The notes under the pieces were generated by a model that saw only the letters and a list, made by a program, of their open reading frames with translations, ran no database searches and had not been told where the DNA came from. Positions 9,603-52,677 of a DNA stretch of 64,000 nucleotides are shown in pieces (the stretch's first letter is position 1; each line of letters starts with the position of its first letter). The translations under genes were made by a program, and so were the position numbers. Source of the stretch: Bacilli bacterium. Its GTDB lineage: Bacteria; Bacillota_I; Bacilli_A; RF39; UBA660. Location of the stretch: positions 10,130 to 74,129 of the forward strand of contig JAGAFD010000005.1 of assembly GCA_017612805.1 (NCBI GenBank), written 5' to 3'.

Positions 9603-10238
9603 TTATTTTTCATTAACAAAGATATTTAAAATTGAAATTACTAATGAAGCAATAATTACCCCACCAACAATATCGGTAGCCCAATGAACTCCAGATATTG
9701 TTCTGGTTACAATAACTGCTCCCATTAATAAAACTAAACCAATATTCAAAAGTTTAAGTATCTTCTTATTATTTAATACTTTAGGATAAATCATCATCGC
9801 ACTTACCCCAATTGCTAGCGATAAGAAAACATGGGTTGAAGGAAATGATGCTTCCAATGCTCCATTTTCAAGTACAGGGCGATAGTTAATAGCTAATTTT
9901 TCAAATAAACAAAATACCCCTACTACTAAAATATAAAATAATGCTAAAAAATAAATATTTTTATTAACTTTTAAAAAGCTTTTATTTTTAATTAATTCAA
10001 TTAAACCAATTACAATAAATGATAAAACCACTAAACCTAAAAGTACTCCTATATAGGTTGATATCTTATAAAATAATTCATTATATGGTAGTAGTTTATG
10101 AATTGAATCATTTAATGAAGCAAATCCTACTGATGAAGCTTCGGGTCCAATAGCTTGATAATCATAGAATCTAATTAAAACCGTATAAACAACACTTAAT
10201 AAAAGCATTTCAATACTAACAATAATTTTCTTTTTCAT
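9603..10238 (-). CDS. PAP2-family phosphatase (membrane)
   Basis: Carries the PAP2 motifs KX6RP (NYRPVL), PSTH and TRTISGVHWATD (SRX5HX3D-like). Confidence 0.7.
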   Translation of the reverse strand: MKKKIIVSIEMLLLSVVYTVLIRFYDYQAIGPEASSVGFASLNDSIHKLLPYNELFYKISTYIGVLLGLVVLSFIVIGLIELIKNKSFLKVNKNIYFLALFYILVVGVFCLFEKLAINYRPVLENGALEASFPSTHVFLSLAIGVSAMMIYPKVLNNKKILKLLNIGLVLLMGAVIVTRTISGVHWATDIVGGVIIASLVISILNIFVNEK

Positions 10239-10249
10239 TTTAACTCCTT

Positions 10250-11059
10250 TTATTTTTGATGAATATCAATTTGAGTATATGGAATATCGATATGTTCTTT
10301 TTCTAATCTTTCTTTAACTATTTTATTAGCATCACGTTTAGCTTGGAAACGTTCCTCTGGTTTACAATCAAAAGCAATCTTATATAAAATAGCCGAATTA
10401 TCAAATTTATTTAATCCTAAGAAACGAATATTAGATATAGCAGTAATTTGTTCCATTTCTTTCATAATTTTATTCATTAAAGCATCGGCACTTTTATAAT
10501 CTAATTCATAAGGTAGTGGTATTTCTATATCGCAAAAATTAGATAAAGTTATCGCACTAGAAATATTACGATTAGCAATTACAATAATATTACCATATCT
10601 AATATCTTTAATCTTGGTTGCTTTTAAACCTAGTTCAATAATAATTCCTTCATGATCACCAACTTTAACCACATCACCTACCGAAAAATATTCATCAGCA
10701 ATTAAATTAAAGCCCATAATAATATCTTTTAAAGCATCTTGAAGAGCTAACCCAGCAACTAGTGATACCACTCCTAGTCCAGTTAATAAGGATGCCACAT
10801 TAAAACCATTTATTTGTAATACAACCATGATTACAATTACAACAATAACATATTTTAATATATTAGAAATTAAGCGATAATATGTTAGTTTTCTTTTTTC
10901 TAATTTCGTTTTAGCACGTTTACGATTAAAATACTTAGTTACTACTCCTCTTAAGATAATATAAGCAAATAAACCAATAGCGATTGTTACCAGTGATAAA
11001 TAAACTCTTCTATTAGCAATAATATCCACAAAATCTTGAAATTCAAATAGTAAGTACAT
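10250..11059 (-). CDS. small-conductance mechanosensitive channel (MscS family)
   Basis: Three TM helices followed by a beta-domain, VGDVVKVGDHEGIIIELGLKATKIKD. Confidence 0.7.
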   Translation of the reverse strand: MYLLFEFQDFVDIIANRRVYLSLVTIAIGLFAYIILRGVVTKYFNRKRAKTKLEKRKLTYYRLISNILKYVIVVIVIMVVLQINGFNVASLLTGLGVVSLVAGLALQDALKDIIMGFNLIADEYFSVGDVVKVGDHEGIIIELGLKATKIKDIRYGNIIVIANRNISSAITLSNFCDIEIPLPYELDYKSADALMNKIMKEMEQITAISNIRFLGLNKFDNSAILYKIAFDCKPEERFQAKRDANKIVKERLEKEHIDIPYTQIDIHQK

Positions 11060-11061
11060 TA

Positions 11062-40938: not shown

Positions 40939-41763
40939 CTATTTAACAATGAATAATTGTTTATCTTTTTCTAATTCTTTTAAACTTTTATTTGGTTTTG
41001 GTAAATCTTCTGGCATCGTGCCATTTAATTCTTTAATCGTTTCTCGAACCTTTTTCCCTACTTCATAATGGGTTTTAATAGCTTTAGCTTCCCCTTTAAT
41101 TTTATCATTTTTAAGTTTGGAATCTGTATGAGTAATTCTAAATAAATTATCAACTAATTCTTCACTTCCCATATTATCCAAAATATCTTCACGATATCTT
41201 AATCCTTTACGTCTTGCAATATCATCAGCTGTTTCACCATTATATAACCCTTTGTATCCAGCATTATGAAATTTATCAAAATTTTTAACACCTGCTTCTT
41301 TGGCAGTTTGATTTAAACTTTTATTATGCTTTTTAGTTAGATTTCTTTGATATATTCGTTTTTCATCTTCACTAAGTTCATTATACTCTTTTTCAAATAA
41401 TTCTTGTTTTCTTGTTTGAATAGCAAAATAAGTTTGGCCTAAGGCTACAACCGGTTTAGAAGAATCAGAATTTTGAACTATTAAATAACATGCATATCTG
41501 GTTAATCTATAATCATTTAATATTCTTTTAGCATTTGAACCTATTTTTACCATTACGTCCATTTGGGCGAAATGGTTTTCAATATTTAAAGCACTCTTTT
41601 CACAAGAGATAATAGCTTTTTTAATAGAAGGAAAAAATTTTCTATATTCACTATATTCTAATGTTTTCCCTAACTCTCTTGCTAACCAATATTCATTACC
41701 ACTTTCATCAATATGTTTAATATTTTCAAATATTTTGTCTGTATATTCTTTTATTTCATTCAT
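40939..41763 (-). CDS. dinD: DNA-damage-inducible protein D (DinD) homologue
   Basis: 274 aa. Close to E. coli DinD along its whole length: YWLARELGKTLEYSEYRKF..., VVALGQTYFAIQTRKQEL, GTMPEDLPKPNKSLKELE. Confidence 0.75.
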   Translation of the reverse strand: MNEIKEYTDKIFENIKHIDESGNEYWLARELGKTLEYSEYRKFFPSIKKAIISCEKSALNIENHFAQMDVMVKIGSNAKRILNDYRLTRYACYLIVQNSDSSKPVVALGQTYFAIQTRKQELFEKEYNELSEDEKRIYQRNLTKKHNKSLNQTAKEAGVKNFDKFHNAGYKGLYNGETADDIARRKGLRYREDILDNMGSEELVDNLFRITHTDSKLKNDKIKGEAKAIKTHYEVGKKVRETIKELNGTMPEDLPKPNKSLKELEKDKQLFIVK

Positions 41764-41924
41764 AAGTTCACCTCATAAATGGCATCATAAACAAAAATGA
41801 AATTTAATACAAATCATTAAAATTTAAAAATAATACTAATAAAATAAACAATACTTTAAATATTATTTATCAATAAAGATAAATTTGTAAAAATAAATAT
41901 TACTAAAATACCAATTTAATAACA

Positions 41925-41948
41925 AATAAAAAATAAGAAGAATTACTT
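41925..41948 (-). terminator. intrinsic terminator
   Basis: AAGAAGTAATTCTTCTT followed by U-run on the minus strand. Confidence 0.55.
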
Positions 41949-42221
41949 CTTATTTTCTTTATCTAAATTTTTAAATGGATGTTTAATACGAGTTTTAATA
42001 GCATTAACAATTATTGAAGAAGTAATATCATAAATACGATTAGCTTCTTCTTCATCTACATTAAGATTTTCCATTAAAGCAATAATTGTTTTACATTTAT
42101 TGCTTTTACCAAATAAGAAGTTATCTTCTAATGATTCACTAATAATAATTGCTTTATCATGTGGATAACCAGTTTGCTTTTCCACTTCTGCAATAAATCC
42201 TCTTTTATTCATTACTATCAC
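41943..42221 (-). CDS. hypothetical small protein
   Basis: 92 aa. Overlaps the upstream XRE-TM gene by 17 nt. Confidence 0.4.
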   Translation of the reverse strand: MIVMNKRGFIAEVEKQTGYPHDKAIIISESLEDNFLFGKSNKCKTIIALMENLNVDEEEANRIYDITSSIIVNAIKTRIKHPFKNLDKENKK

Positions 42222-43128
42222 CGTACATTTTACCTTTAGAATCTAGTTGAATTTCATAACCATATTCAAAGATATAAGAAATAACAAAGATAATTAAGAT
42301 TTCTACTAAGTTAAACATTTCTAGTGAAATATCTAAATCTTTATGTAAGATTATTTCAAATATTGAACCAGTTACATTAGGTAGAATAATTAATGCAATC
42401 ATTAAGTAAGCTATTTTTTTAATATGTTCAACATTTTCTAAAGTAAATGGTGTATCACCATTATGAATATTATTAAATAACTTTTCTACTCTTTTAAGCA
42501 TTAATATTAATAATACTAATGAAGCTATTAATACGATAGAAGCTGTTTCACAATATCCAATTAATAAACCTTTGTTATTAATGTTATCTTCAACTACATC
42601 TTTAATCATTGCTATTTTTTCTTTATCACTTTCAACAGCAATAATAGATTTTTTACGTTTAATAATTAACTCATTATTCTCTTCTACTACTTCAATAATT
42701 TTAGTATTATTAGAAATAATCTTACCATCCTTAATATCAATATTTTTAATTGCTATTGGAAGTAATACAGCAACTATTCCAATTAATACTGCTCCAACTA
42801 TTGATGCAATCCATCCAATTTTAGATAATACTGATATTATCTTAGATAATACCTTTACTTTCTTTTGTTTTTGTTTTTTAAACTTAACAACACTCATTTT
42901 AACTTCTTCATCTAATGAATTAATGTCTGACATATCTTCATGTACTAATTCATTAATTTGACATTTAAAAATAGTACATAAACACATAATATTAGTCATA
43001 CTAGGATAATTTTCACCAGTTTCCCATTTAGATACTGATTGTCTAGATACTCCTAACTTATCTGCTAATTCCTCCTGAGATATTTTTCTCATCTTTCTCA
43101 CTCTTTTAAGATTGTCTCCAAATTTCAT
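42205..43128 (-). CDS. XRE-family HTH regulator fused to membrane-spanning C-terminal region
   Basis: An N-terminal HTH, ISQEELADKLGVSRQSVSKWETGEN, followed by several TM helices. Confidence 0.6.
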   Translation of the reverse strand: MKFGDNLKRVRKMRKISQEELADKLGVSRQSVSKWETGENYPSMTNIMCLCTIFKCQINELVHEDMSDINSLDEEVKMSVVKFKKQKQKKVKVLSKIISVLSKIGWIASIVGAVLIGIVAVLLPIAIKNIDIKDGKIISNNTKIIEVVEENNELIIKRKKSIIAVESDKEKIAMIKDVVEDNINNKGLLIGYCETASIVLIASLVLLILMLKRVEKLFNNIHNGDTPFTLENVEHIKKIAYLMIALIILPNVTGSIFEIILHKDLDISLEMFNLVEILIIFVISYIFEYGYEIQLDSKGKMYGDSNE

Positions 43129-43312: not shown

Positions 43313-44347
43313 TTAAAAATCTATAACATGATTATATAATTGATATTTTTTATTTGAATAATCTATTTTATTATCTAAAGCCAATCTATATAATACGAAA
43401 CACTTAGGATATTTTTCCTCATTATCAATGTTATAACAATCATTATTAACAATACTCATATAATATTCGTCAGATACCATCCAATTTAATGATTGTTTAT
43501 CAGCTTTATCTTCAAATTTTTCGTTTTCAAAAGATATTAAATTTGTGGCTTTAGCCATATTAAAATCACTCTTACAATGTGCCAATTCATGTAATAAAGC
43601 AAAATATATATCTGCAATTCTCTTATACTTTCGGGTTAAATAAATAGCAGGAGTTTCCTTATTGACTTTAAATGCGCCTCGAATCTTAGATCCTGGTAAA
43701 TCATCTTGAATTACGAGTTGAATTCCATTTTTATTAAACTTTTCAATTAATTTTTTTTCATCAAACAAATCATTCTTAGCATTATCTTTTATAAATTCCA
43801 CTAAAGAATCTATATTACTTTTATCATATTGGCCAAGAACCTGATTACTTGCAATTCTATAACATCTCTCTAGCCATATCATAAGCATTTCTGGTTTATC
43901 ATTCTTACTTTTATATAATATATTTTTATCTAATTTATACAAACTATCAGGTGCTGAAACCCTTAAATATTTAAGAATATCCATTAATGATGTCATTTTA
44001 TTATCTACATGAACAAATTTTATCCAATTACTTTTTAATAGCTCTCTATATGAAAATTTATTTAAATATTGAGTAAGCGTTATCTCATTCTTATTCAAGA
44101 AATTTATAATTTCACATTCCATTCTATAATTTTCTTCTATTTTTAAAATATACTCAGCTGGGATATCAGTAACGATGGAAATAGATTGAATTATTGAAGA
44201 AGATAATTCAATGTTACCTGATAATAAATCAATTAAATGCTTAGGGGAAATGCCGATTCTTGCAGCAAATTCCTTATTAGATATATTGTGCTCATTTAAA
44301 TAATCTTTCAAAATATCAACAAAACGCACATGTGCCATTTCTATCAC
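43313..44347 (-). CDS. HTH (XRE) + ImmA/IrrE-family (COG2856) zinc metallopeptidase fusion, HigA-like antitoxin
   Basis: An N-terminal HTH, NKEFAARIGISPKHLIDLLSGN, and an HEXXH at FALLHELAHC. The start is either GTG at 44347 or ATG at 44338. Confidence 0.65.
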   Translation of the reverse strand: MIEMAHVRFVDILKDYLNEHNISNKEFAARIGISPKHLIDLLSGNIELSSSIIQSISIVTDIPAEYILKIEENYRMECEIINFLNKNEITLTQYLNKFSYRELLKSNWIKFVHVDNKMTSLMDILKYLRVSAPDSLYKLDKNILYKSKNDKPEMLMIWLERCYRIASNQVLGQYDKSNIDSLVEFIKDNAKNDLFDEKKLIEKFNKNGIQLVIQDDLPGSKIRGAFKVNKETPAIYLTRKYKRIADIYFALLHELAHCKSDFNMAKATNLISFENEKFEDKADKQSLNWMVSDEYYMSIVNNDCYNIDNEEKYPKCFVLYRLALDNKIDYSNKKYQLYNHVIDF

Positions 44348-44358
44348 CCTTAATCTTT

Positions 44359-44691
44359 TTAAATATTTCTTAAATATCTTTTAAAATCTTCATAATGTTC
44401 ATCAGAAATATATTCGAGTCTAATAGAATAATTATCAGGGCAAGAAAACAAAAGCCTTAATTTTCCACTTTTACTATTCTTATCAATAGAAAATCTATAA
44501 TAACCTGTCAAATCACCTTTCAATTCCTCAAAACCATATTGATCAGATATTACATGGTTTTTTAAATCTTTAAAATCATGTACAACCTCCATATGACTTA
44601 ACACTTTATTTAGTTTATCCATAGCATCATAATTTTTCTTGATTTTTTTTAAGCTATTTTTATACCCAGTTGTAAGTTCAGAAATAATCAT
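44359..44691 (-). CDS. HigB-like (RelE/ParE superfamily) toxin
   Basis: 110 aa. ELKGDLTGYYRFSIDKNSKSGKLRLLF parallels HigB HPLKGDREGYWSITVRANWRITFQF. It sits 11 nt upstream of the HTH-peptidase gene. Confidence 0.55.
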   Translation of the reverse strand: MIISELTTGYKNSLKKIKKNYDAMDKLNKVLSHMEVVHDFKDLKNHVISDQYGFEELKGDLTGYYRFSIDKNSKSGKLRLLFSCPDNYSIRLEYISDEHYEDFKRYLRNI

Positions 44692-44931
44692 GAAAAATAA
44701 AAACTCCTTTCCTCTTCTTTACTCTTTCATATCTATCCTATCATTCCTCTACGTATACGTATATATATTAACATTAAGGTTAATATATGTCAATAATTAA
44801 ATGATTAAAAAACTAATCTAACATTATTATTTTTTATCTTCAATTTTTAAACGCAAATAGTAATTATCGTGTTCATGATAACATAATTGAATTAATTATT
44901 AATTCATATAAAAAAGCAGGATTTCTCCTAC

Positions 44932-46806
44932 CTATATTTTTGATTTGAAATATTTTTGTAATTCAAGATCTGTACAATAAACATAACAACCTTTCAGACC
45001 TCTAGTCATTAATGTTCTATATGTATTTTTTATTATAGAGTCTGCTATTCTATTTGCTTCTTCTTGTCCCTTTTCTAAAGCTATTTTATTTATGCCTTTT
45101 AATGATTGATCTGTTTTTGCTCTTTTTGTATAATCTGTAACTATTTGACCATTTTCATACCTCATATCATCGCCAATAATAACACCAACATAATCAAACT
45201 CTAATCCTTGGCATGTATGAATACATCCAGCTTCATTAACAGACTCTGGATCAATAGCATATGTTTGAGAATTAGCTAAGTTCCAACTCATTTCAAAATT
45301 ATATTCAGGTATTACAATATCATGAACAGTAGTCTTAGCTTTACCTTCACTAATCCAGTCCCAACAGTAACCTGCAACTATTCTAGATTTATTATTTATT
45401 GTATTTTTTTCTTCAATAGTTCTTCTCATTTCATTTGGATCATCAAAAACTTTAAAATCATAATCAAATCCATCGATATCAAAATTTGCAGTTTCTCTTA
45501 TTTCTAATAGATTATCTAACCAGGCGATGTAGCCATCTGAACCATTGCATCTAAATTGACTGTCTAATTCATAAATATAAATACCAGCATCTAATTCTCT
45601 TGCATATTGCTTTATTAAATCTTCACTACCAATATCTTTTAGTGTTACTTTTTGATTTTCATCTATAAAGAATATTGAAAATTTAGAAGCATTAATTATT
45701 TCTTTAATTTGGTTTTCACCTTTATTTTGAAATAATCCAGATTTAGCATTTAATCGATGTGCCTCATCCACTACTAATACATCCAATTTATTACTTTCTT
45801 CATTAACAAAATTACCAGACCCTTGAAATAAATGATTAATATAAGTTTGAGTAAAATCTCCTCTTAATTTAGCTGCAAATACATTTCTAGGTGCAGCATT
45901 TTTTGTTACATAAAAGCATGTCATATTTCTATTATTAAACTCAACTAATAAATTAATGGCCAATACTGACTTACCAGTTCCTGGTCCACCTCTAACAATC
46001 ATTACATTTTTCTTGTTATTAGCAACAGTATCAATTGCATTACTTATTGCATATTCATAAATAACTTTTTGATCATCAATCATATAAAATTCTTTATTAC
46101 CATGTAACATTTGTGATAAAGAATCTTGAAGCATCTTTGATGGTCTAATTCTTCCATGATCAATTTCATATAGAATACTTCCATCATCACCACTTGATAT
46201 ATATTTTTTAATAAAGTCTCTTAATTTAATAACATCATTATGTCCAAATAAAGGAGCCTTATCAGTATATTCTTTATAATTATCAGATAATAATGTATCA
46301 TCATTTTCAAAATAATAATTATGCAAATAAGCACAAGGTATAACATTAATGTCTTTTAGTTGAACAGATTCATTATAATCTTTAATTAAGTTAGCATAAG
46401 TCATGGCTTGGTATGAAGGATGGTTTACATCTCTAAGTCCTCCACCCACAAATGTATTAACCTTATAAATACCATCTAGGTAAGCAACTTCAGTAGCTTT
46501 ATCCCATTGCTTTAGCTCAATTATAATTACATTAGATTTGTCATTGTTAAATCCAGACATCATAAAATCTATTCTACATCCAGTTGGTGGAATATTATAT
46601 TCAATAGCTATACCAGTATTATCCGGTATTTCATTATCACTTAATACACCTCTCATATATTGCATAGAATTCTTCCAAGAATTAAATTCGGGTGAACTTG
46701 GTCTTCTTTTAATCTTTTCAATATATTTATTTCTTATCTTATCAGCTATTATTCCTAAATCTACATCATTAATAAATCCTGATTTTATCCCTTCATATAC
46801 TAACAT
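44932..46806 (-). CDS. DUF2075-type protein with an N-terminal PD-(D/E)xK nuclease-like domain and an SF1-helicase-like ATPase
   Basis: The N-terminus reads ...RIDFMM...VIIIELKQWD (D...ExK). Walker A is RGGPGTGKS and Walker B is DVLVVDEAHRL. The helicase motif is CQGLEFDYVGVI. Confidence 0.65.
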   Translation of the reverse strand: MLVYEGIKSGFINDVDLGIIADKIRNKYIEKIKRRPSSPEFNSWKNSMQYMRGVLSDNEIPDNTGIAIEYNIPPTGCRIDFMMSGFNNDKSNVIIIELKQWDKATEVAYLDGIYKVNTFVGGGLRDVNHPSYQAMTYANLIKDYNESVQLKDINVIPCAYLHNYYFENDDTLLSDNYKEYTDKAPLFGHNDVIKLRDFIKKYISSGDDGSILYEIDHGRIRPSKMLQDSLSQMLHGNKEFYMIDDQKVIYEYAISNAIDTVANNKKNVMIVRGGPGTGKSVLAINLLVEFNNRNMTCFYVTKNAAPRNVFAAKLRGDFTQTYINHLFQGSGNFVNEESNKLDVLVVDEAHRLNAKSGLFQNKGENQIKEIINASKFSIFFIDENQKVTLKDIGSEDLIKQYARELDAGIYIYELDSQFRCNGSDGYIAWLDNLLEIRETANFDIDGFDYDFKVFDDPNEMRRTIEEKNTINNKSRIVAGYCWDWISEGKAKTTVHDIVIPEYNFEMSWNLANSQTYAIDPESVNEAGCIHTCQGLEFDYVGVIIGDDMRYENGQIVTDYTKRAKTDQSLKGINKIALEKGQEEANRIADSIIKNTYRTLMTRGLKGCYVYCTDLELQKYFKSKI

Positions 46807-46816
46807 ACTAACCTCA

Positions 46817-47698
46817 TTACATATTACTTAATTCATTAGCAATAGATTTTCTTCTTTTTTCTCGTTCTAGATTTGCTAATTTTTGAATAAGTATTTCCTC
46901 TAAAGCACATTTTAATATTGGAAATATTTCTTGACATTCTTCTTCTGATAAATTATGTATTCCATCACTCACCCTAGCATAAATTATATTAAACCCATTC
47001 TCAAATAATAAGGATGGTAAATATTTTTTTAATTTTTTTACTCGATCTTCGATACGATAATGCAAAAATTCATCTTCAGAAAAATCTAAATTATCTTTAT
47101 TGTCATTGAAACAATCTATTAATAATTTTTCAAATATTCTTCTTAAATATATTAAAGCGCCAATACATGTATTAAAACTATATAATGAACATGCTTTCTT
47201 ATAATATCCAGCATATTCATTCCCTAATTCCTTTATAAAAGGCTTATTGTTTATTTCTTCATTTAAATCATAAATAGATGGATATTGTCCTATTTTCAAT
47301 ATCCTATCATTTGATAAAACTTTAAAATCAACAATTAAAGAATGCCCACAATCACCACAACCTATTATCCTAAAATAATCTTTACCTCTCAATTCATCAG
47401 CTGCTGATGCTTGTTTTCCTTGAATACTCATACTTATCCATGCATAAGAAGAATTATGTAATGTGAATATTCTTCTTTGTTTACATAAATTACAATAACA
47501 TTCAATTTTTAAATTGTTATACGGAAAAAACTTATAATTTGCAACCTTCGTATTAACAGACATTGGCTTATATAATGGATATAATAACATTTTTTCATTA
47601 ATAAATGAATTTGTCATGTCATTAGCGGTTATATTATTTCTATTGTGGAAATCTAATTCTTGTATTGTTATCATTTCAATATTATTATCTCTATTCAT
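46817..47698 (-). CDS. Zn-ribbon (CxC-x2-C...C-x2-C) protein with DUF4145-like helical C-terminal domain
   Basis: Cysteine cluster CYCNLC...CGDCGH. The alpha-helical C-terminus resembles DUF4145. GAGGTG RBS. Confidence 0.45.
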   Translation of the reverse strand: MNRDNNIEMITIQELDFHNRNNITANDMTNSFINEKMLLYPLYKPMSVNTKVANYKFFPYNNLKIECYCNLCKQRRIFTLHNSSYAWISMSIQGKQASAADELRGKDYFRIIGCGDCGHSLIVDFKVLSNDRILKIGQYPSIYDLNEEINNKPFIKELGNEYAGYYKKACSLYSFNTCIGALIYLRRIFEKLLIDCFNDNKDNLDFSEDEFLHYRIEDRVKKLKKYLPSLLFENGFNIIYARVSDGIHNLSEEECQEIFPILKCALEEILIQKLANLEREKRRKSIANELSNM

Positions 47699-47710
47699 AA
47701 AACACCTCGA

Positions 47711-48025
47711 TTATAATTTTGTATATTTTGTACTTTTTCCTTTTGATTTTTCAACAGGATATTTTTTTGCTGTCTTTTCCATTTTATCTAAAACTATTTG
47801 TTTCGGATCTACTCCTAATTTATCCGCCATCAATATGCAATAATTTATTACATCAGCAAGTTCTTCTTTAACTTCATCTAAATCATATTCATTATTCCAT
47901 TGAAAACATTCTAATAATTCACCTGCTTCAATGCAAATACTCTTTGCTAAATTTTCAGGTGAATGAAATTGATCCCAATCACGTTCTTTAGTAAATTCGA
48001 CAACCTTTTCCCTTAATTCTTGCAT
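47711..48025 (-). CDS. MazG-like all-alpha NTP pyrophosphohydrolase
   Basis: 104 aa with EAGELLE and ELADVINYCILMADKLGVD motifs. AGGTGG RBS. Confidence 0.65.
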   Translation of the reverse strand: MQELREKVVEFTKERDWDQFHSPENLAKSICIEAGELLECFQWNNEYDLDEVKEELADVINYCILMADKLGVDPKQIVLDKMEKTAKKYPVEKSKGKSTKYTKL

Positions 48026-48043
48026 TATAAACCACCTAATTCA

Positions 48044-48052
48044 ATTATACCA
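48044..48052 (-). promoter_or_regulatory. extended -10 promoter (TGgTATAAT) for the 3-gene operon
   Basis: The minus strand reads cttaTGgTATAATtgaattAGGTGGtttataATG. Confidence 0.5.
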
Positions 48053-48095: not shown

Positions 48096-48476
48096 TTATT
48101 TCATTACTTCAATATATTCTTCAATTTTTTCATTATCAATAATAGTTATATTTAATCTAGCTGCTGCTTCTTTAGCATTAACACTAACTTCATCATTACT
48201 AATGATAATACCAAAACCAACTTTTTCTCTTTCCATATCTTGTACAGTTTCTTCTATTTCGCGCATTGTTATTTTTTTATTTAAATAAGTTTGAACTGTA
48301 TACATAACATTATCTTTTTTAGCTAACATATCATTATCATTAGTAGGGTCATCATCAGATAATCTAGCATCATCTAACGTTACTGGAAAATAACCATGTT
48401 TTAATAATACTGCTTGAATATAATTTCTAAATTCCCTACTATCTATAAAGTTATCAATAATCCCTATATCTTCCAT
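48096..48476 (-). CDS. stand-alone Mrr-cat-like restriction endonuclease domain protein
   Basis: 126 aa. DNDMLAKKDNVMYTVQT...GFGIIISNDEVSVNAKEAAARLNITIIDNEKIEEY matches the Mrr catalytic-domain pattern. Confidence 0.55.
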   Translation of the reverse strand: MEDIGIIDNFIDSREFRNYIQAVLLKHGYFPVTLDDARLSDDDPTNDNDMLAKKDNVMYTVQTYLNKKITMREIEETVQDMEREKVGFGIIISNDEVSVNAKEAAARLNITIIDNEKIEEYIEVMK

Positions 48477-48534: not shown

Positions 48535-49281
48535 TTATTTTTTTGTATATTTACACTTTGGATAATTAGAACATCCAATAAATTTTCCATACTTACTTTT
48601 TCTTTCAACTAATTGTCCACCACATTTTGGGCATTTATTAGGATCTTTATCTATTACATTTTTTCTAATATTTCTAATATGTTCCTTTTTTATCTTTTTA
48701 TCAATGATATTATTTCTATTAATTATATTAACAATTAAACTTACATCATCAATAATAACATCTTTGTATGATAATATTTTATCAACAATAGTATCGTATC
48801 TTACTAACTCTCCATCATGTTGAATCTTTAAAGTTGCTTTACTAGGAATACATACAATATTATATATTTTTGATTCATCAACATTTAATAATTCTGATAG
48901 TGCTTTTACGTGACCATAGTTCTGTCTAATTGGATTAGAATAATAATACTTATTCTTTCCAACATGTCTTATCCAATATTTATCATATTTATTACCAGTA
49001 ATAAAACCATTATATTGTTTAGTTTCTACAGAAAATATACCATATGGTGAAACTATCACATGATCTATTTGATGAGTATTACCATTCGTTTTTATAAATA
49101 CATCATTTATAACTATATATTTATCTTTTGGTAATTTTTTTAGCGCTTGTTTTGTCCAAAGCTCACCAAACCAGCCAATTATTTTTTTAGAATAAATAAC
49201 TAATAATATATCGATTATAATAAATAAGATAACAAATGGATTAGTTAAAAAAGTAATTATTACTTTAATAAAATCAGCCAT
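48535..49281 (-). CDS. NERD-domain nuclease-related protein with C-terminal topoisomerase-type C4 zinc finger
   Basis: An N-terminal TM, a NERD core (GELWTKQALKKL...HQIDHVIVSPYGIFSVETKQYNG), and a C-terminus CPKCGGQLVERKSKYGKFIGCSNYPKC. Confidence 0.6.
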   Translation of the reverse strand: MADFIKVIITFLTNPFVILFIIIDILLVIYSKKIIGWFGELWTKQALKKLPKDKYIVINDVFIKTNGNTHQIDHVIVSPYGIFSVETKQYNGFITGNKYDKYWIRHVGKNKYYYSNPIRQNYGHVKALSELLNVDESKIYNIVCIPSKATLKIQHDGELVRYDTIVDKILSYKDVIIDDVSLIVNIINRNNIIDKKIKKEHIRNIRKNVIDKDPNKCPKCGGQLVERKSKYGKFIGCSNYPKCKYTKK

Positions 49282-49801: not shown

Positions 49802-50464
49802 ATGGAAAAAGCAGGAATTATTACTGATATGATAATAAGAGGAAATGCCTCTGCATTAAATGCACTAAAAATTTTAAATGCTTATGAACGTTTTGATAAA
49901 ATAATTAAAACTTTTTATCGTGGACTTGGTTTTATTATCACTTATGATTATAGTGATGCCAAAGCGGATTATTACGGACAATATACGCATGATTTAAAAA
50001 TTTATTTTGATCATGTATTAGTATTTGATAGTAAAACTAATACTTATATTCCAGGGCCATGGGAAGAATTACTTAGTAAAATGGTAGAAAACAAAAAAAT
50101 AACTAATAAAAAAGGTAAAGAATATGAAACATCTTACGAACGCGCTTTAAAAATTGATACGGAAATTGAAAAGATTATTGCTAATGATAAATCTGAAGAA
50201 TGTTATGTAAGACTTAATAAAGATATTACCGTTTATAAAAATCCTAAAAGCGAAAATCCGTATGTAGTTTCAGCACATAACGATTTTGTATACATCTGTA
50301 ATAAGTATCATGAAATCCAACAAATTAAAGAAAGTGGATGGGAAGAAGTAGTTTTAAAATACATGGCTGGCGTTGAAGCTGAAAAATTAGATGAATTACA
50401 TAAAAGACAAAAAACATTAGTTCATGATTATATGGATGCATTTAAAGGAAAGGAAAAGAAATAA
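49802..50464 (+). CDS. hypothetical protein, paralogue A (two internal repeats of a GPWE-containing module)
   Basis: 220 aa. The repeats are ...IYFDHVLVFDSKTNTYIPGPWEELL... and ...FVYICNKYHEIQQIKESGWEEVV... AAGGAAG RBS. Confidence 0.55.
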   Translation: MEKAGIITDMIIRGNASALNALKILNAYERFDKIIKTFYRGLGFIITYDYSDAKADYYGQYTHDLKIYFDHVLVFDSKTNTYIPGPWEELLSKMVENKKITNKKGKEYETSYERALKIDTEIEKIIANDKSEECYVRLNKDITVYKNPKSENPYVVSAHNDFVYICNKYHEIQQIKESGWEEVVLKYMAGVEAEKLDELHKRQKTLVHDYMDAFKGKEKK

Positions 50465-51156
50465 TGTTTAAAAAGAAGAATAAACTTAGTAAGGAAACCA
50501 TTGCTTTTCTTGAACAAAATATACCAGCAGTAGAAGATGCCATTAAAATCTTAAAAGAAGTTGGTATTGAAAGTGAAAGAGATCCAAGAGTTAGGAATAA
50601 TAAAGAGATTCAATATAATGGTTCTGGTTTTAATATCCATATTTATGGTGGAAAAGATACTATCGATGCAAAAGACCCGCTATATTTAACTATTAGTTTT
50701 GAACATGTAGTAGTATATAATGCATGGTACCTAAAATATGTTGAAGGCCCTTGGGAAACATTAATTAAAGAGTTAGCAAAGCGTCCTACAATAGCGCAAA
50801 ACCTTCAAGATAAATATAACGAAAATAAAGCGCGTGCCGAAATTATTGATTATGAAATAAGAGATATTATGCAATATCTCACACTTTCTCGTATTAAATC
50901 ACTTGAATTAAAAGACTATAATATGATAATTTATTATAACTACAATTGTGATGATAAAAGATACGTAATAGAGTATCAAGGCGAAGATGTATATGTAGCT
51001 AATAGCTATCATGAAATTCAAACTCTAACTGAAGGCCCTTGGGAAGCCATTTTAATGAATTATAGAAAAAATGAAGAAGCTAAAGCTTATGCCGAAAAGC
51101 ATAAAGTTCAACTAGAACAAGTTGATAAATACATGCAAATATTAAAAAATAGCTGA
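50464..51156 (+). CDS. hypothetical protein, paralogue B (two internal repeats of a GPWE-containing module)
   Basis: 230 aa. The repeats are ...ISFEHVVVYNAWYLKYVEGPWETLI... and ...VYVANSYHEIQTLTEGPWEAIL... Its start overlaps the stop of paralogue A (TAATG). Confidence 0.55.
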   Translation: MFKKKNKLSKETIAFLEQNIPAVEDAIKILKEVGIESERDPRVRNNKEIQYNGSGFNIHIYGGKDTIDAKDPLYLTISFEHVVVYNAWYLKYVEGPWETLIKELAKRPTIAQNLQDKYNENKARAEIIDYEIRDIMQYLTLSRIKSLELKDYNMIIYYNYNCDDKRYVIEYQGEDVYVANSYHEIQTLTEGPWEAILMNYRKNEEAKAYAEKHKVQLEQVDKYMQILKNS

Positions 51157-51915: not shown

Positions 51916-52677
51916 TTATTTTTTATCAGTTAATTTTTTAGTTTGACCTTTATAGATATCACGCGATTTTTTTAAAATATCTTGAAGTTCTTCCGGATAA
52001 ATACTATTTACTTTATTAATTAATTCTTCATCTATTTCAATATCTAATAATCTTATTCCTTTTTCTTCTTTTAAGAATATCGCATCTTCAATGTAGATAA
52101 CATTTGCATACGAAGAAAGGGCATTATCAAACCTAACGCTATTGGCATAACCATTAATAATATTACGATAAATAACGCCTTTAAATTCTCTTAAATCATC
52201 AAAGCTTTGGAATATTGCATGTTTAGCAAAAAAAGCATTAGCAATAATCACAATATCACTTATATGTGGAGCTTTCTTTTCATCTTTAACTTGTTTATCA
52301 TCCCACACTAAGATATTATTAACTGCAAATTCACGGTGACCTTTTTTATCAAGATCATAAGCTTCTAAAATCCATTCTTCATGAGCATGCCATTCAGATT
52401 TTTTATATTCTAATTTAATTGGAATAATATTTCTTTTAGCAGTAATTCCTTCCCAATTTTTATAAGTAATCGTAACTACTTTTTTACGCATATTAGCTAG
52501 TTTTTTAGCATCCTCATCACTTAATAGCATATTTTGTACTAAACCACTTTCGGATGTCGTTGCCACATGATAATATAGCGTTTCATCTGAATCATCAAAT
52601 TCTTTAAAACAAAATGAACCTAAATCGTCGCCTCTTTGTTCTCCAGAAATTACATTTAATCTTTTAATCTCACCCAT
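51916..52677 (-). CDS. hypothetical protein
   Basis: 253-aa ORF. Confidence 0.45.
   Translation of the reverse strand: MGEIKRLNVISGEQRGDDLGSFCFKEFDDSDETLYYHVATTSESGLVQNMLLSDEDAKKLANMRKKVVTITYKNWEGITAKRNIIPIKLEYKKSEWHAHEEWILEAYDLDKKGHREFAVNNILVWDDKQVKDEKKAPHISDIVIIANAFFAKHAIFQSFDDLREFKGVIYRNIINGYANSVRFDNALSSYANVIYIEDAIFLKEEKGIRLLDIEIDEELINKVNSIYPEELQDILKKSRDIYKGQTKKLTDKK

Follow-up and report, generated by a model that had tools for sequence, protein, structure and literature searches.

Do three tightly packed genes in a bacterial defence island form one dedicated system, or has a conserved module taken in a gene of separate origin? The question arises from a 64,000-nucleotide stretch of low-GC DNA (~25% GC; hereafter the window) from the Bacilli bacterium contig JAGAFD010000005.1. 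In this window three minus-strand genes encode, in order, a MazG-like protein, a protein with a zinc-binding domain and a HEPN-fold domain, and a DUF2075 helicase with a predicted nuclease domain (Table 1). An earlier note, made from the DNA letters, had proposed these genes as a novel three-gene defence operon. Comparison with related loci suggests instead that the locus is a conserved, mobile, Nhi-like core of two genes, MazG and nuclease-helicase, which carries autonomous and exchangeable cargo between them, here a RAZR-like protein; we assign this reading a probability of about 0.6. The anatomy of the operon, the conserved catalytic residues in the three proteins, the linkage of the outer genes, the replacement of the middle gene exactly at the limits of its open reading frame (ORF) and the independent occurrence of cargo elsewhere are established by computation.

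The MazG-DUF2075 pair and the slot within it

Two sets of loci were compared with the window. The set collected with the nuclease-helicase comprised 80 genome loci at 57-92% identity to it, 76 of them with upstream DNA, and the set collected with the MazG-like protein comprised 80 metagenome loci, of which 66 were assessable. A MazG gene of the window's type lay upstream on the same strand in 70 of the 76 loci, and a DUF2075 gene lay downstream in 61 of the 66, i.e., the two genes were linked in 92% of assessable cases whichever of them was used for the search (146 related loci). The homology search returned at least 8,000 candidates, and the pair ranges from gut Bacillota to haloarchaea; at 41-52% identity it was found on one plasmid each of Halalkalicoccus (haloarchaeal), Priestia and Marivirga and in a Microcystis element. 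The two proteins diverge in a correlated manner (r = 0.51, Mantel p = 0.001). When the window is compared with its closest relatives, DNA homology is limited to the promoter, MazG and DUF2075. It begins 30-50 nucleotides (nt) 5' of the MazG ATG, is interrupted from the MazG stop codon to 0-20 nt before the DUF2075 ATG, and ends at the stop codon of the nuclease-helicase gene. That MazG and DUF2075 are chance neighbours in a crowded island was considered and ruled out by this two-way linkage, by the many junctions that overlap or measure 0-12 nt, and by the confinement of homology to both genes.

The interrupted position behaves as a variable slot. It is empty in ~45% of loci, with MazG and DUF2075 abutting or overlapping in 29 genome and 29 metagenome loci (abutting was defined as a gap of at most 60 nt; the observed gaps were -4 to about 45 nt). 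It is occupied in about 40 genome and 32 metagenome loci, usually by one ORF and rarely by two. In the pooled locus sets, the 75 inserted proteins fell into 33 unrelated clusters, i.e., at least 33 families. Each insert has its own ribosome-binding site 8-12 nt past the MazG stop, and its stop codon is followed by the DUF2075 ATG at a median distance of 5 nt (at most 15 nt in 65 of 71 cases, with 13 overlaps). By Pfam, the cargo includes HEPN_AbiU2, bona fide DUF4145, Hypoth_Ymh and HEPN proteins, HNH_5, HNH_2, AIPR, GIY-YIG-DUF2075, NERD with Zn_ribbon_Top1, Mrr_cat, PLD-DEAD-DUF3427 with NUDIX, RVT_1, AAA_21/AAA_15 and DUF2441, and sequence inspection added transmembrane proteins. The slot can also contain a whole module of two genes, or another DUF2075 protein. 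Roughly 18 families, about half of the 33, have no recognisable domain. Against PADLOC, one DUF4145 cargo (c3, from locus L033) matched PD-T7-4, the RAZR model, at 4.9e-8, and another (c17) matched PDC-S64.

Within a cargo family, identity was 35-60%, whereas the flanking core of the same locus pairs was 82-92% identical. Furthermore, several loci are mosaic, with a MazG protein 92-93% identical but a nuclease-helicase only 67-73% identical. Because cargo diverges beyond its flanks and loci are mosaic between the two core genes, recombination at the slot fits these data. Inspection by eye, made without a formal repeat search, revealed no shared repeats or att-like sites at the junctions.

The cargo of the window follows the same pattern, and the fixed three-gene system of the earlier note was not recovered. 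The three genes recur together in one further contig only (L097), where the cargo is 86% identical to that of the window and DUF2075 71% identical; the two therefore have different histories. In the other 160 loci the cargo family of the window is absent from the slot. The family itself is larger, with 357 homologues detected, and members at 46-56% identity occur in six other contexts without MazG or DUF2075 nearby. These contexts include a position between DUF6809 and a DUF1016/YhcG nuclease, the vicinity of a type I restriction-modification (R-M) system, integrative elements near DUF6076, and a position after a helix-turn-helix (HTH) gene. Cargo families thus occur independently elsewhere, and are predicted to be autonomous defence-type genes.

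Three observations on individual loci concern the slot. In locus L017, the slot holds an HNH_2 protein and a homologue of the window's cargo (positions 10161-11060, E = 8e-95) lies ~2.3 kb downstream of DUF2075, so cargo of this type can sit beside the module and not just within it. In metagenome loci L130, L132, L163 and L176, the slot is filled by a reverse transcriptase of 380-440 residues (RVT_1 at 7e-14, YSDD motif), which may be a defence-associated enzyme. The slot protein of locus L120 is 48% identical to the NERD and Zn_ribbon_Top1 protein of the window, which lies outside the slot here.

Modules 60-73% identical to that of the window were also found in contigs binned as Methanosphaera, Muribaculaceae or Saccharibacteria metagenome-assembled genomes (L056, L062, L077-L079 and L088); the explanation is either extensive horizontal transfer or the placing of contigs in the wrong bin. 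In Methanosphaera, the complete plasmid NZ_CP118754 carries a DUF2075 gene 57% identical to that of the window.

The three proteins and their known relatives

The first gene had been called MazG-like, and a search with profile hidden Markov models (HMMs) agreed, with a match to PF12643 (MazG-like) of 77.5 bits against a gathering cut-off of 27 (E = 1e-21). The protein aligned over its full length with the DCTPP1/RS21-C6 entries 2a3q and 6sqw of the PDB (E = 9.5e-20), and its ExxE...ExxD metal site (E33, E36, E39, E55 and D58) showed no variation in 67 orthologues. By this homology it is a predicted all-alpha nucleoside triphosphate pyrophosphatase of the DCTPP1 kind. DCTPP1 acts on dCTP and 5-methyl-dCTP (PMC4491611, PMC13510388). 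The window protein shares with it the alignable length and the metal site, but is a bacterial stand-alone protein of 104 residues within a mobile operon. A search of the literature found no defence role for the DCTPP1-type family.

The last gene had been described as a fusion of a PD-(D/E)xK nuclease motif with a superfamily 1 (SF1) ATPase. Its residues 266-613 matched PF09848 (DUF2075/Schlafen group 3) at E = 6.5e-108, and the motifs IIIELKQWD, GGPGTGKS, VVDEAHRL and QGLEFDYVGV are all present, with their key residues invariant in orthologues. The helicase invariants are Walker A (GGPGTGK279), Walker B (D347-E348), QGLEFD538 and the arginine finger R602. In the N-terminal domain, none of the PD-(D/E)xK-type residues (E69, D80 and E97-x-K99) varies among 33 homologues, even in archaeal and Bacteroidota proteins that are 40-54% identical, and the predicted strand pattern is compatible with a PD-(D/E)xK domain. 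Going by its motifs, the protein is a predicted PD-(D/E)xK nuclease joined to a DUF2075 SF1 helicase. PDB matches to spermidine synthase (E = 5e-4) and PKA-R (E = 0.55) were judged spurious. The N-terminal domain belongs to a family of 1,641 representative clusters and is N-terminal in nearly all of the matches listed; it precedes a DUF2075 helicase in seven of the eight homologues scanned with Pfam, and otherwise just extra C-terminal domains were recognised. Among these, a sister class of ~795-815 residues (P0323, P0363 and P0466) combines the N-terminal domain and DUF2075 with a C-terminal LexA/UmuD-like Peptidase_S24 domain, which hints at control by RecA or single-stranded DNA. In one member of this class, P0419 (1068 residues), a PIF1-like helicase is fused on as a second helicase.

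Nhi from S. epidermidis (SERP2475; Bari et al. 2022) and Nhi-like proteins (Millman et al. 2022) are validated anti-phage defences in which a single protein combines PD-(D/E)xK and DUF2075 domains. The window protein resembles them in its architecture, a PD-(D/E)xK-type motif at the N-terminus and a DUF2075 SF1 helicase at the C-terminus of one polypeptide, and in its defence-island setting. However, its PADLOC matches (AbiO at 1e-16, Nhi model PDLC02372 at 1.3e-15, and PDC-S41) are all partial. The Nhi match spans residues 238-561 against positions 179-430 of a 470-position model, i.e., the helicase core, and the AbiO match is similar, whereas the N-terminal domain forms a family of its own that lacks a Pfam model. 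In addition, Nhi and Nhi-like defences are single genes, whereas the window's gene is linked to MazG in an operon split by the cargo slot. No close relative of the nuclease-helicase was found in IMG/VR viral contigs, which contained one relative of the middle protein; the module is therefore not typically phage-borne.

For the middle gene, the earlier note had proposed a C4 zinc ribbon and a DUF4145-like helical domain. The N-terminal domain was confidently predicted to be beta-rich and is a putative zinc-binding domain, but the invariant ligands have the form CxxC...CxH (C69, C72, C117 and H119), and the extra Cys114 of the window protein is not conserved. The C-terminal domain has the HEPN fold and, besides K/R242, carries the invariant motif S-x-G-x-H248-N-L; the window protein, however, had no match to DUF4145 (PF13643) at E <= 1, and sub-threshold matches were seen in 5 of 41 family members (best E = 0.0028). 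An hhalign comparison of the family with nine other cargo families detected no relationship, the probability for the DUF4145 proteins of the slot being below 1%. A Foldseek search of the model against the PDB gave nothing significant and did not recover any RAZR entry, and PADLOC gave no match at E <= 0.01, PD-T7-4 included. As part of the reading given above, and with the same probability, we regard the protein as a new RAZR-like combination of a zinc domain and a HEPN domain, and as a putative RNase.

RAZR (PD-T7-4; Vassallo 2022; Zhang et al., Nature 2026, PMC13017515) is a validated single-gene abortive-infection RNase, which detects phage ring proteins with its zinc-ribbon domain and cleaves RNA with its DUF4145/HEPN domain (PMC13017515). 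The window protein differs from it in having no PD-T7-4 HMM match and no profile-profile similarity to the RAZR homologues found in the slot. It exceeds the 211-position PD-T7-4 model by ~80 residues, its N-terminal domain is larger and beta-rich, and it has CxxC...CxH ligands where RAZR has Cys4, and a [K/R]x5H motif where RAZR has R146...H154.

PADLOC v2 holds no model for the MazG-like protein, the middle protein, the pair or the slot, and matches the nuclease-helicase only partially, in its helicase core. The literature yielded no phage-related report of MazG together with either DUF2075 or Schlafen, and no description of the pair or the slot was found there. The earlier view that the combination is not a named system thus holds. 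P2/P4 hotspots and integron cassettes likewise place hypervariable defence-gene cargo between conserved flanks. Here, however, the flanks are two genes of one operon, and the cargo is promoter-less, ORF-exact and translationally packed, with no integrase or att/attC-like repeat visible at the junctions. What appears to be new is a predicted nuclease-helicase defence with an obligate-looking pyrophosphatase partner and a hypervariable internal cargo slot.

Competing explanations of the locus

If the locus is a two-gene core with autonomous cargo, the core would act on phage DNA as Nhi does, with ATP-driven SF1 translocation coupled to nuclease cleavage. Because the MazG-like protein is homologous to DCTPP1 (PMC4491611, PMC13510388), it might remove non-canonical (5-modified) dCTP made by the phage, or dCTP itself, or tune the nuclease-helicase through the nucleotide pool; the recurrent NUDIX and modification-dependent nuclease neighbours also touch on this role (PMC6765204). 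The middle protein would be silent at first; once a phage protein docks on its zinc domain, the HEPN domain would cut RNA and halt translation. It would thus provide a second, independent layer of defence, co-transcribed from the module's own promoter, and homologous recombination in the conserved genes on either side would exchange one cargo for another.

Several points weigh against this reading. All evidence for the three proteins is computational. The first 255 residues of the nuclease-helicase gave no Pfam match at E <= 1 and no PDB match, and its AlphaFold2 model was poor (pLDDT 47, from an alignment in which all sequences were at least 71% identical) and was not used for a fold search; the nuclease half of the fusion that the earlier note described is therefore drawn from motifs, while its helicase half is secured by PF09848. 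MazG is missing from six core loci, so the pair is not obligatory. The very tight or overlapping junctions fit a physical complex of cargo and core equally well. Moreover, no de-duplication was made between the genome set and the metagenome set of loci, and the majority of loci come from metagenome-assembled genomes or metagenome contigs, whose bins may be partly contaminated.

The junctions also speak for a different explanation, in which the DUF2075 enzyme would hold a HEPN, HNH or transmembrane effector latent, the effector would fire when a phage inhibits the core, and the slot would contain exchangeable second-line effectors of one integrated system. There is a precedent in PrrC, encoded within the type Ic R-M operon EcoprrI, which the R-M enzyme keeps silent until an anti-restriction peptide of the phage activates it (PMC1484252, PMC2610378), and DUF4145 and Ymh are HEPN families known inside R-M operons (PMC3710099). 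In both arrangements an abortive-infection gene of the RNase type is embedded in the operon of a DNA-targeting, ATP-dependent nuclease (PMC1484252, PMC3710099), although the host operon here is MazG and DUF2075 rather than hsdMSR, and the slot is far more variable, with at least 33 families. The many HEPN-type RNases and nucleases among the cargos, and the much faster divergence of cargo than of core (35-60% against 82-92% identity), would also suit such guarding. However, ~45% of cores are free of cargo, cargo families are found alone elsewhere, RAZR is sufficient as a single gene (PMC13017515), and the cargo extends to whole two-gene modules and to another DUF2075 protein. We therefore consider a guarded effector possible but doubtful, and prefer a core with autonomous cargo.

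A fixed three-component system, in which each gene would have a dedicated and co-evolved role, could draw on the shared promoter and terminator, the spacers of 10-12 nt and the recurrence of the same three genes in L097. It is very improbable, given that 33 unrelated families occupy the same position, that the window's family is missing from the slot of all the other 160 loci, and that even in L097 the cargo and DUF2075 (86% and 71% identical) have separate histories. Nor do we find it probable that the pair serves no defence at all but is a mobile module for nucleotide-pool sanitation and DNA repair or replication restart, with the inserts as selfish passengers. DCTPP1-type enzymes do perform house-cleaning (PMC13510388), eukaryotic Schlafen/DUF2075 proteins, as quoted in PMC6765204, react to replication stress, and the sister clade joins the N-terminal domain and DUF2075 to a LexA-like Peptidase_S24. 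Yet the distribution is patchy and mobile, beside integrases, R-M systems, type IV-like enzymes, Fic, OLD/RloB and toxin-antitoxin (TA) genes, the DNA homology is limited to the module, and Nhi and Nhi-like proteins of the same architecture are validated anti-phage proteins.

A bolder reading, which we put forward only tentatively and regard as unlikely, would make the operon a dedicated docking platform for defence genes and its internal junction an integrase-free cassette slot, into which promoter-less effector or sensor genes would be swapped by homologous recombination. The effectors, among them HEPN RNases, HNH nucleases, reverse transcriptases and transmembrane proteins, would be guarded by the core as PrrC is by EcoprrI, with MazG aimed at phage-specific modified deoxynucleoside triphosphates. 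If this were true, new anti-phage genes would be represented by the ~18 slot families in which no domain was recognised.

The slot could serve as a discovery filter, any gene between MazG and DUF2075 being a candidate defence gene, and the arrangement offers a tractable test case for whether abortive-infection genes embedded in a host system travel as autonomous passengers or are kept under its guard. The widespread module would also tie a nucleotide-pool enzyme of the DCTPP1 type to nucleic-acid-degrading immunity of the Nhi/Schlafen type, a connection that is directly testable.

Boundaries of the operon and the surrounding island

Table 1. Coordinates of the operon, its signals and the adjoining genes in the window
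Feature	Position	Strand	Remarks
MazG-like gene (DCTPP1/RS21-C6 homologue)	47711-48025	-	104 aa; first gene of the conserved core
Zinc-domain and HEPN gene (slot cargo)	46817-47698	-	293 aa; zinc-binding beta domain, aa ~45-140; HEPN-fold helical domain, aa ~160-292
Nuclease-helicase gene (nuclease predicted)	44932-46806	-	624 aa; second core gene; DUF2075 helicase, aa 266-613
Extended -10 element, TGgTATAAT	48052-48044	-	followed by AGGTGG (48037-48032) and the MazG ATG at 48025
Upstream terminator-like hairpin and T-run	48097-48075	-	10-bp stem with 3 GC pairs
Downstream terminator-like hairpin	44933-44914	-	overlaps the stop codon of the nuclease-helicase gene
Mrr_cat mini-restriction endonuclease	48096-48476	-	126 aa, Mrr_cat domain alone; adjoins the operon, not part of it
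NERD and Zn_ribbon_Top1 protein	48535-49281	-	topoisomerase-type zinc ribbon; adjoins the operon, not part of it
Two-gene module (toxin-like ORF and HTH protein)	43313-44691	-	downstream of the nuclease-helicase gene

The layout described in the earlier note was largely borne out. The spacers, by ORF coordinates on the minus strand, are 12 nt between the MazG and middle genes and 10 nt between the middle and nuclease-helicase genes. A generic promoter scan of the region was no better than chance, with 47 sites against 50 expected in AT-rich DNA. However, 36 of 69 related loci have a TGnTAnAAT element ~27 nt upstream of the MazG start codon, with the same spacing as in the window. The conserved -10 element is often directly 3' of a hairpin and T-run, even where the upstream DNA is unrelated. 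Since its position is kept in these loci despite the unrelated upstream DNA, the element belongs to the module. Terminator-like sites were more frequent than expected (5 against 0.9), and the upstream terminator that had been proposed is present as a hairpin and T-run; it is predicted to terminate the Mrr_cat gene and to insulate the operon. The spacer of 240 nt between the nuclease-helicase gene and the next gene (44692-44931) is real, but its AT content, which had been pointed out as a feature, is ordinary for this genome. From these signals the three genes are predicted to be one co-transcribed operon of defence-type genes.

In 13 loci (L018, L020, L022, L028, L048, L049, L051, L053, L057, L061, L064, L069 and L093), the promoter is replaced by a Fic/DOC gene that ends 10-20 nt before MazG, and the order of the operon is Fic, MazG, slot, DUF2075. 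The Fic/DOC protein is conserved, with 278 residues, the motif HPFREGNTRT and a PF02661 match at 3e-12.

The placement of the operon in a defence island, also proposed earlier, agrees with its neighbours, which comprise the Mrr_cat and NERD proteins on one side and a PD-Lambda-2_B-like protein on the other. In the two-gene module downstream, the 110-residue toxin-like ORF has a weak match to phrog_3066 'toxin', and the 344-residue HTH_3 protein has an HExxH (HELAH) motif and matches PADLOC PD-Lambda-2_B at 3e-23; the module may be a partial PD-Lambda-2-like or a TA-type module. A promoter-like site, TTGACA-17-TAATAT, precedes it at 44793-44765. Genes for a Bro-N protein, an HTH_3-DUF2975 membrane protein and a WYL-domain protein mark the edges (40939-43128 and 51916-52677), and envelope housekeeping genes (LPG synthase, CDP-alcohol transferase and sulfatase) lie below ~40.9 kb; from these edge genes and the start of the housekeeping genes, the island was placed at ~40.9-51.2 kb. 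At the edge of the island, two tandem paralogous ORFs on the plus strand (49802-50464 and 50464-51156; 220 and 230 residues, 31% identical, E = 2e-21) are divergently oriented and gave no Pfam or PADLOC match.

Related loci adjoin integrases, type I R-M systems, a pair of AAA_21 and RloB genes, Fic, and NUDIX with PLD-helicase-DUF3427. The last of these, a NUDIX gene with a PLD-DEAD helicase-DUF3427 gene, lies upstream of the module in L012, L033, L045 and L075, within the slot in L058, L084 and L151, and downstream in L040, L042 and L095; by analogy, it would be a second pyrophosphatase and nuclease-helicase pair of the same logic. In Priestia, the MazG gene of locus L103 is preceded by genes of the MutT/NUDIX and DUF3578 families. 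The recurrence of NUDIX pairs suggests a link to the restriction of modified-base phages.

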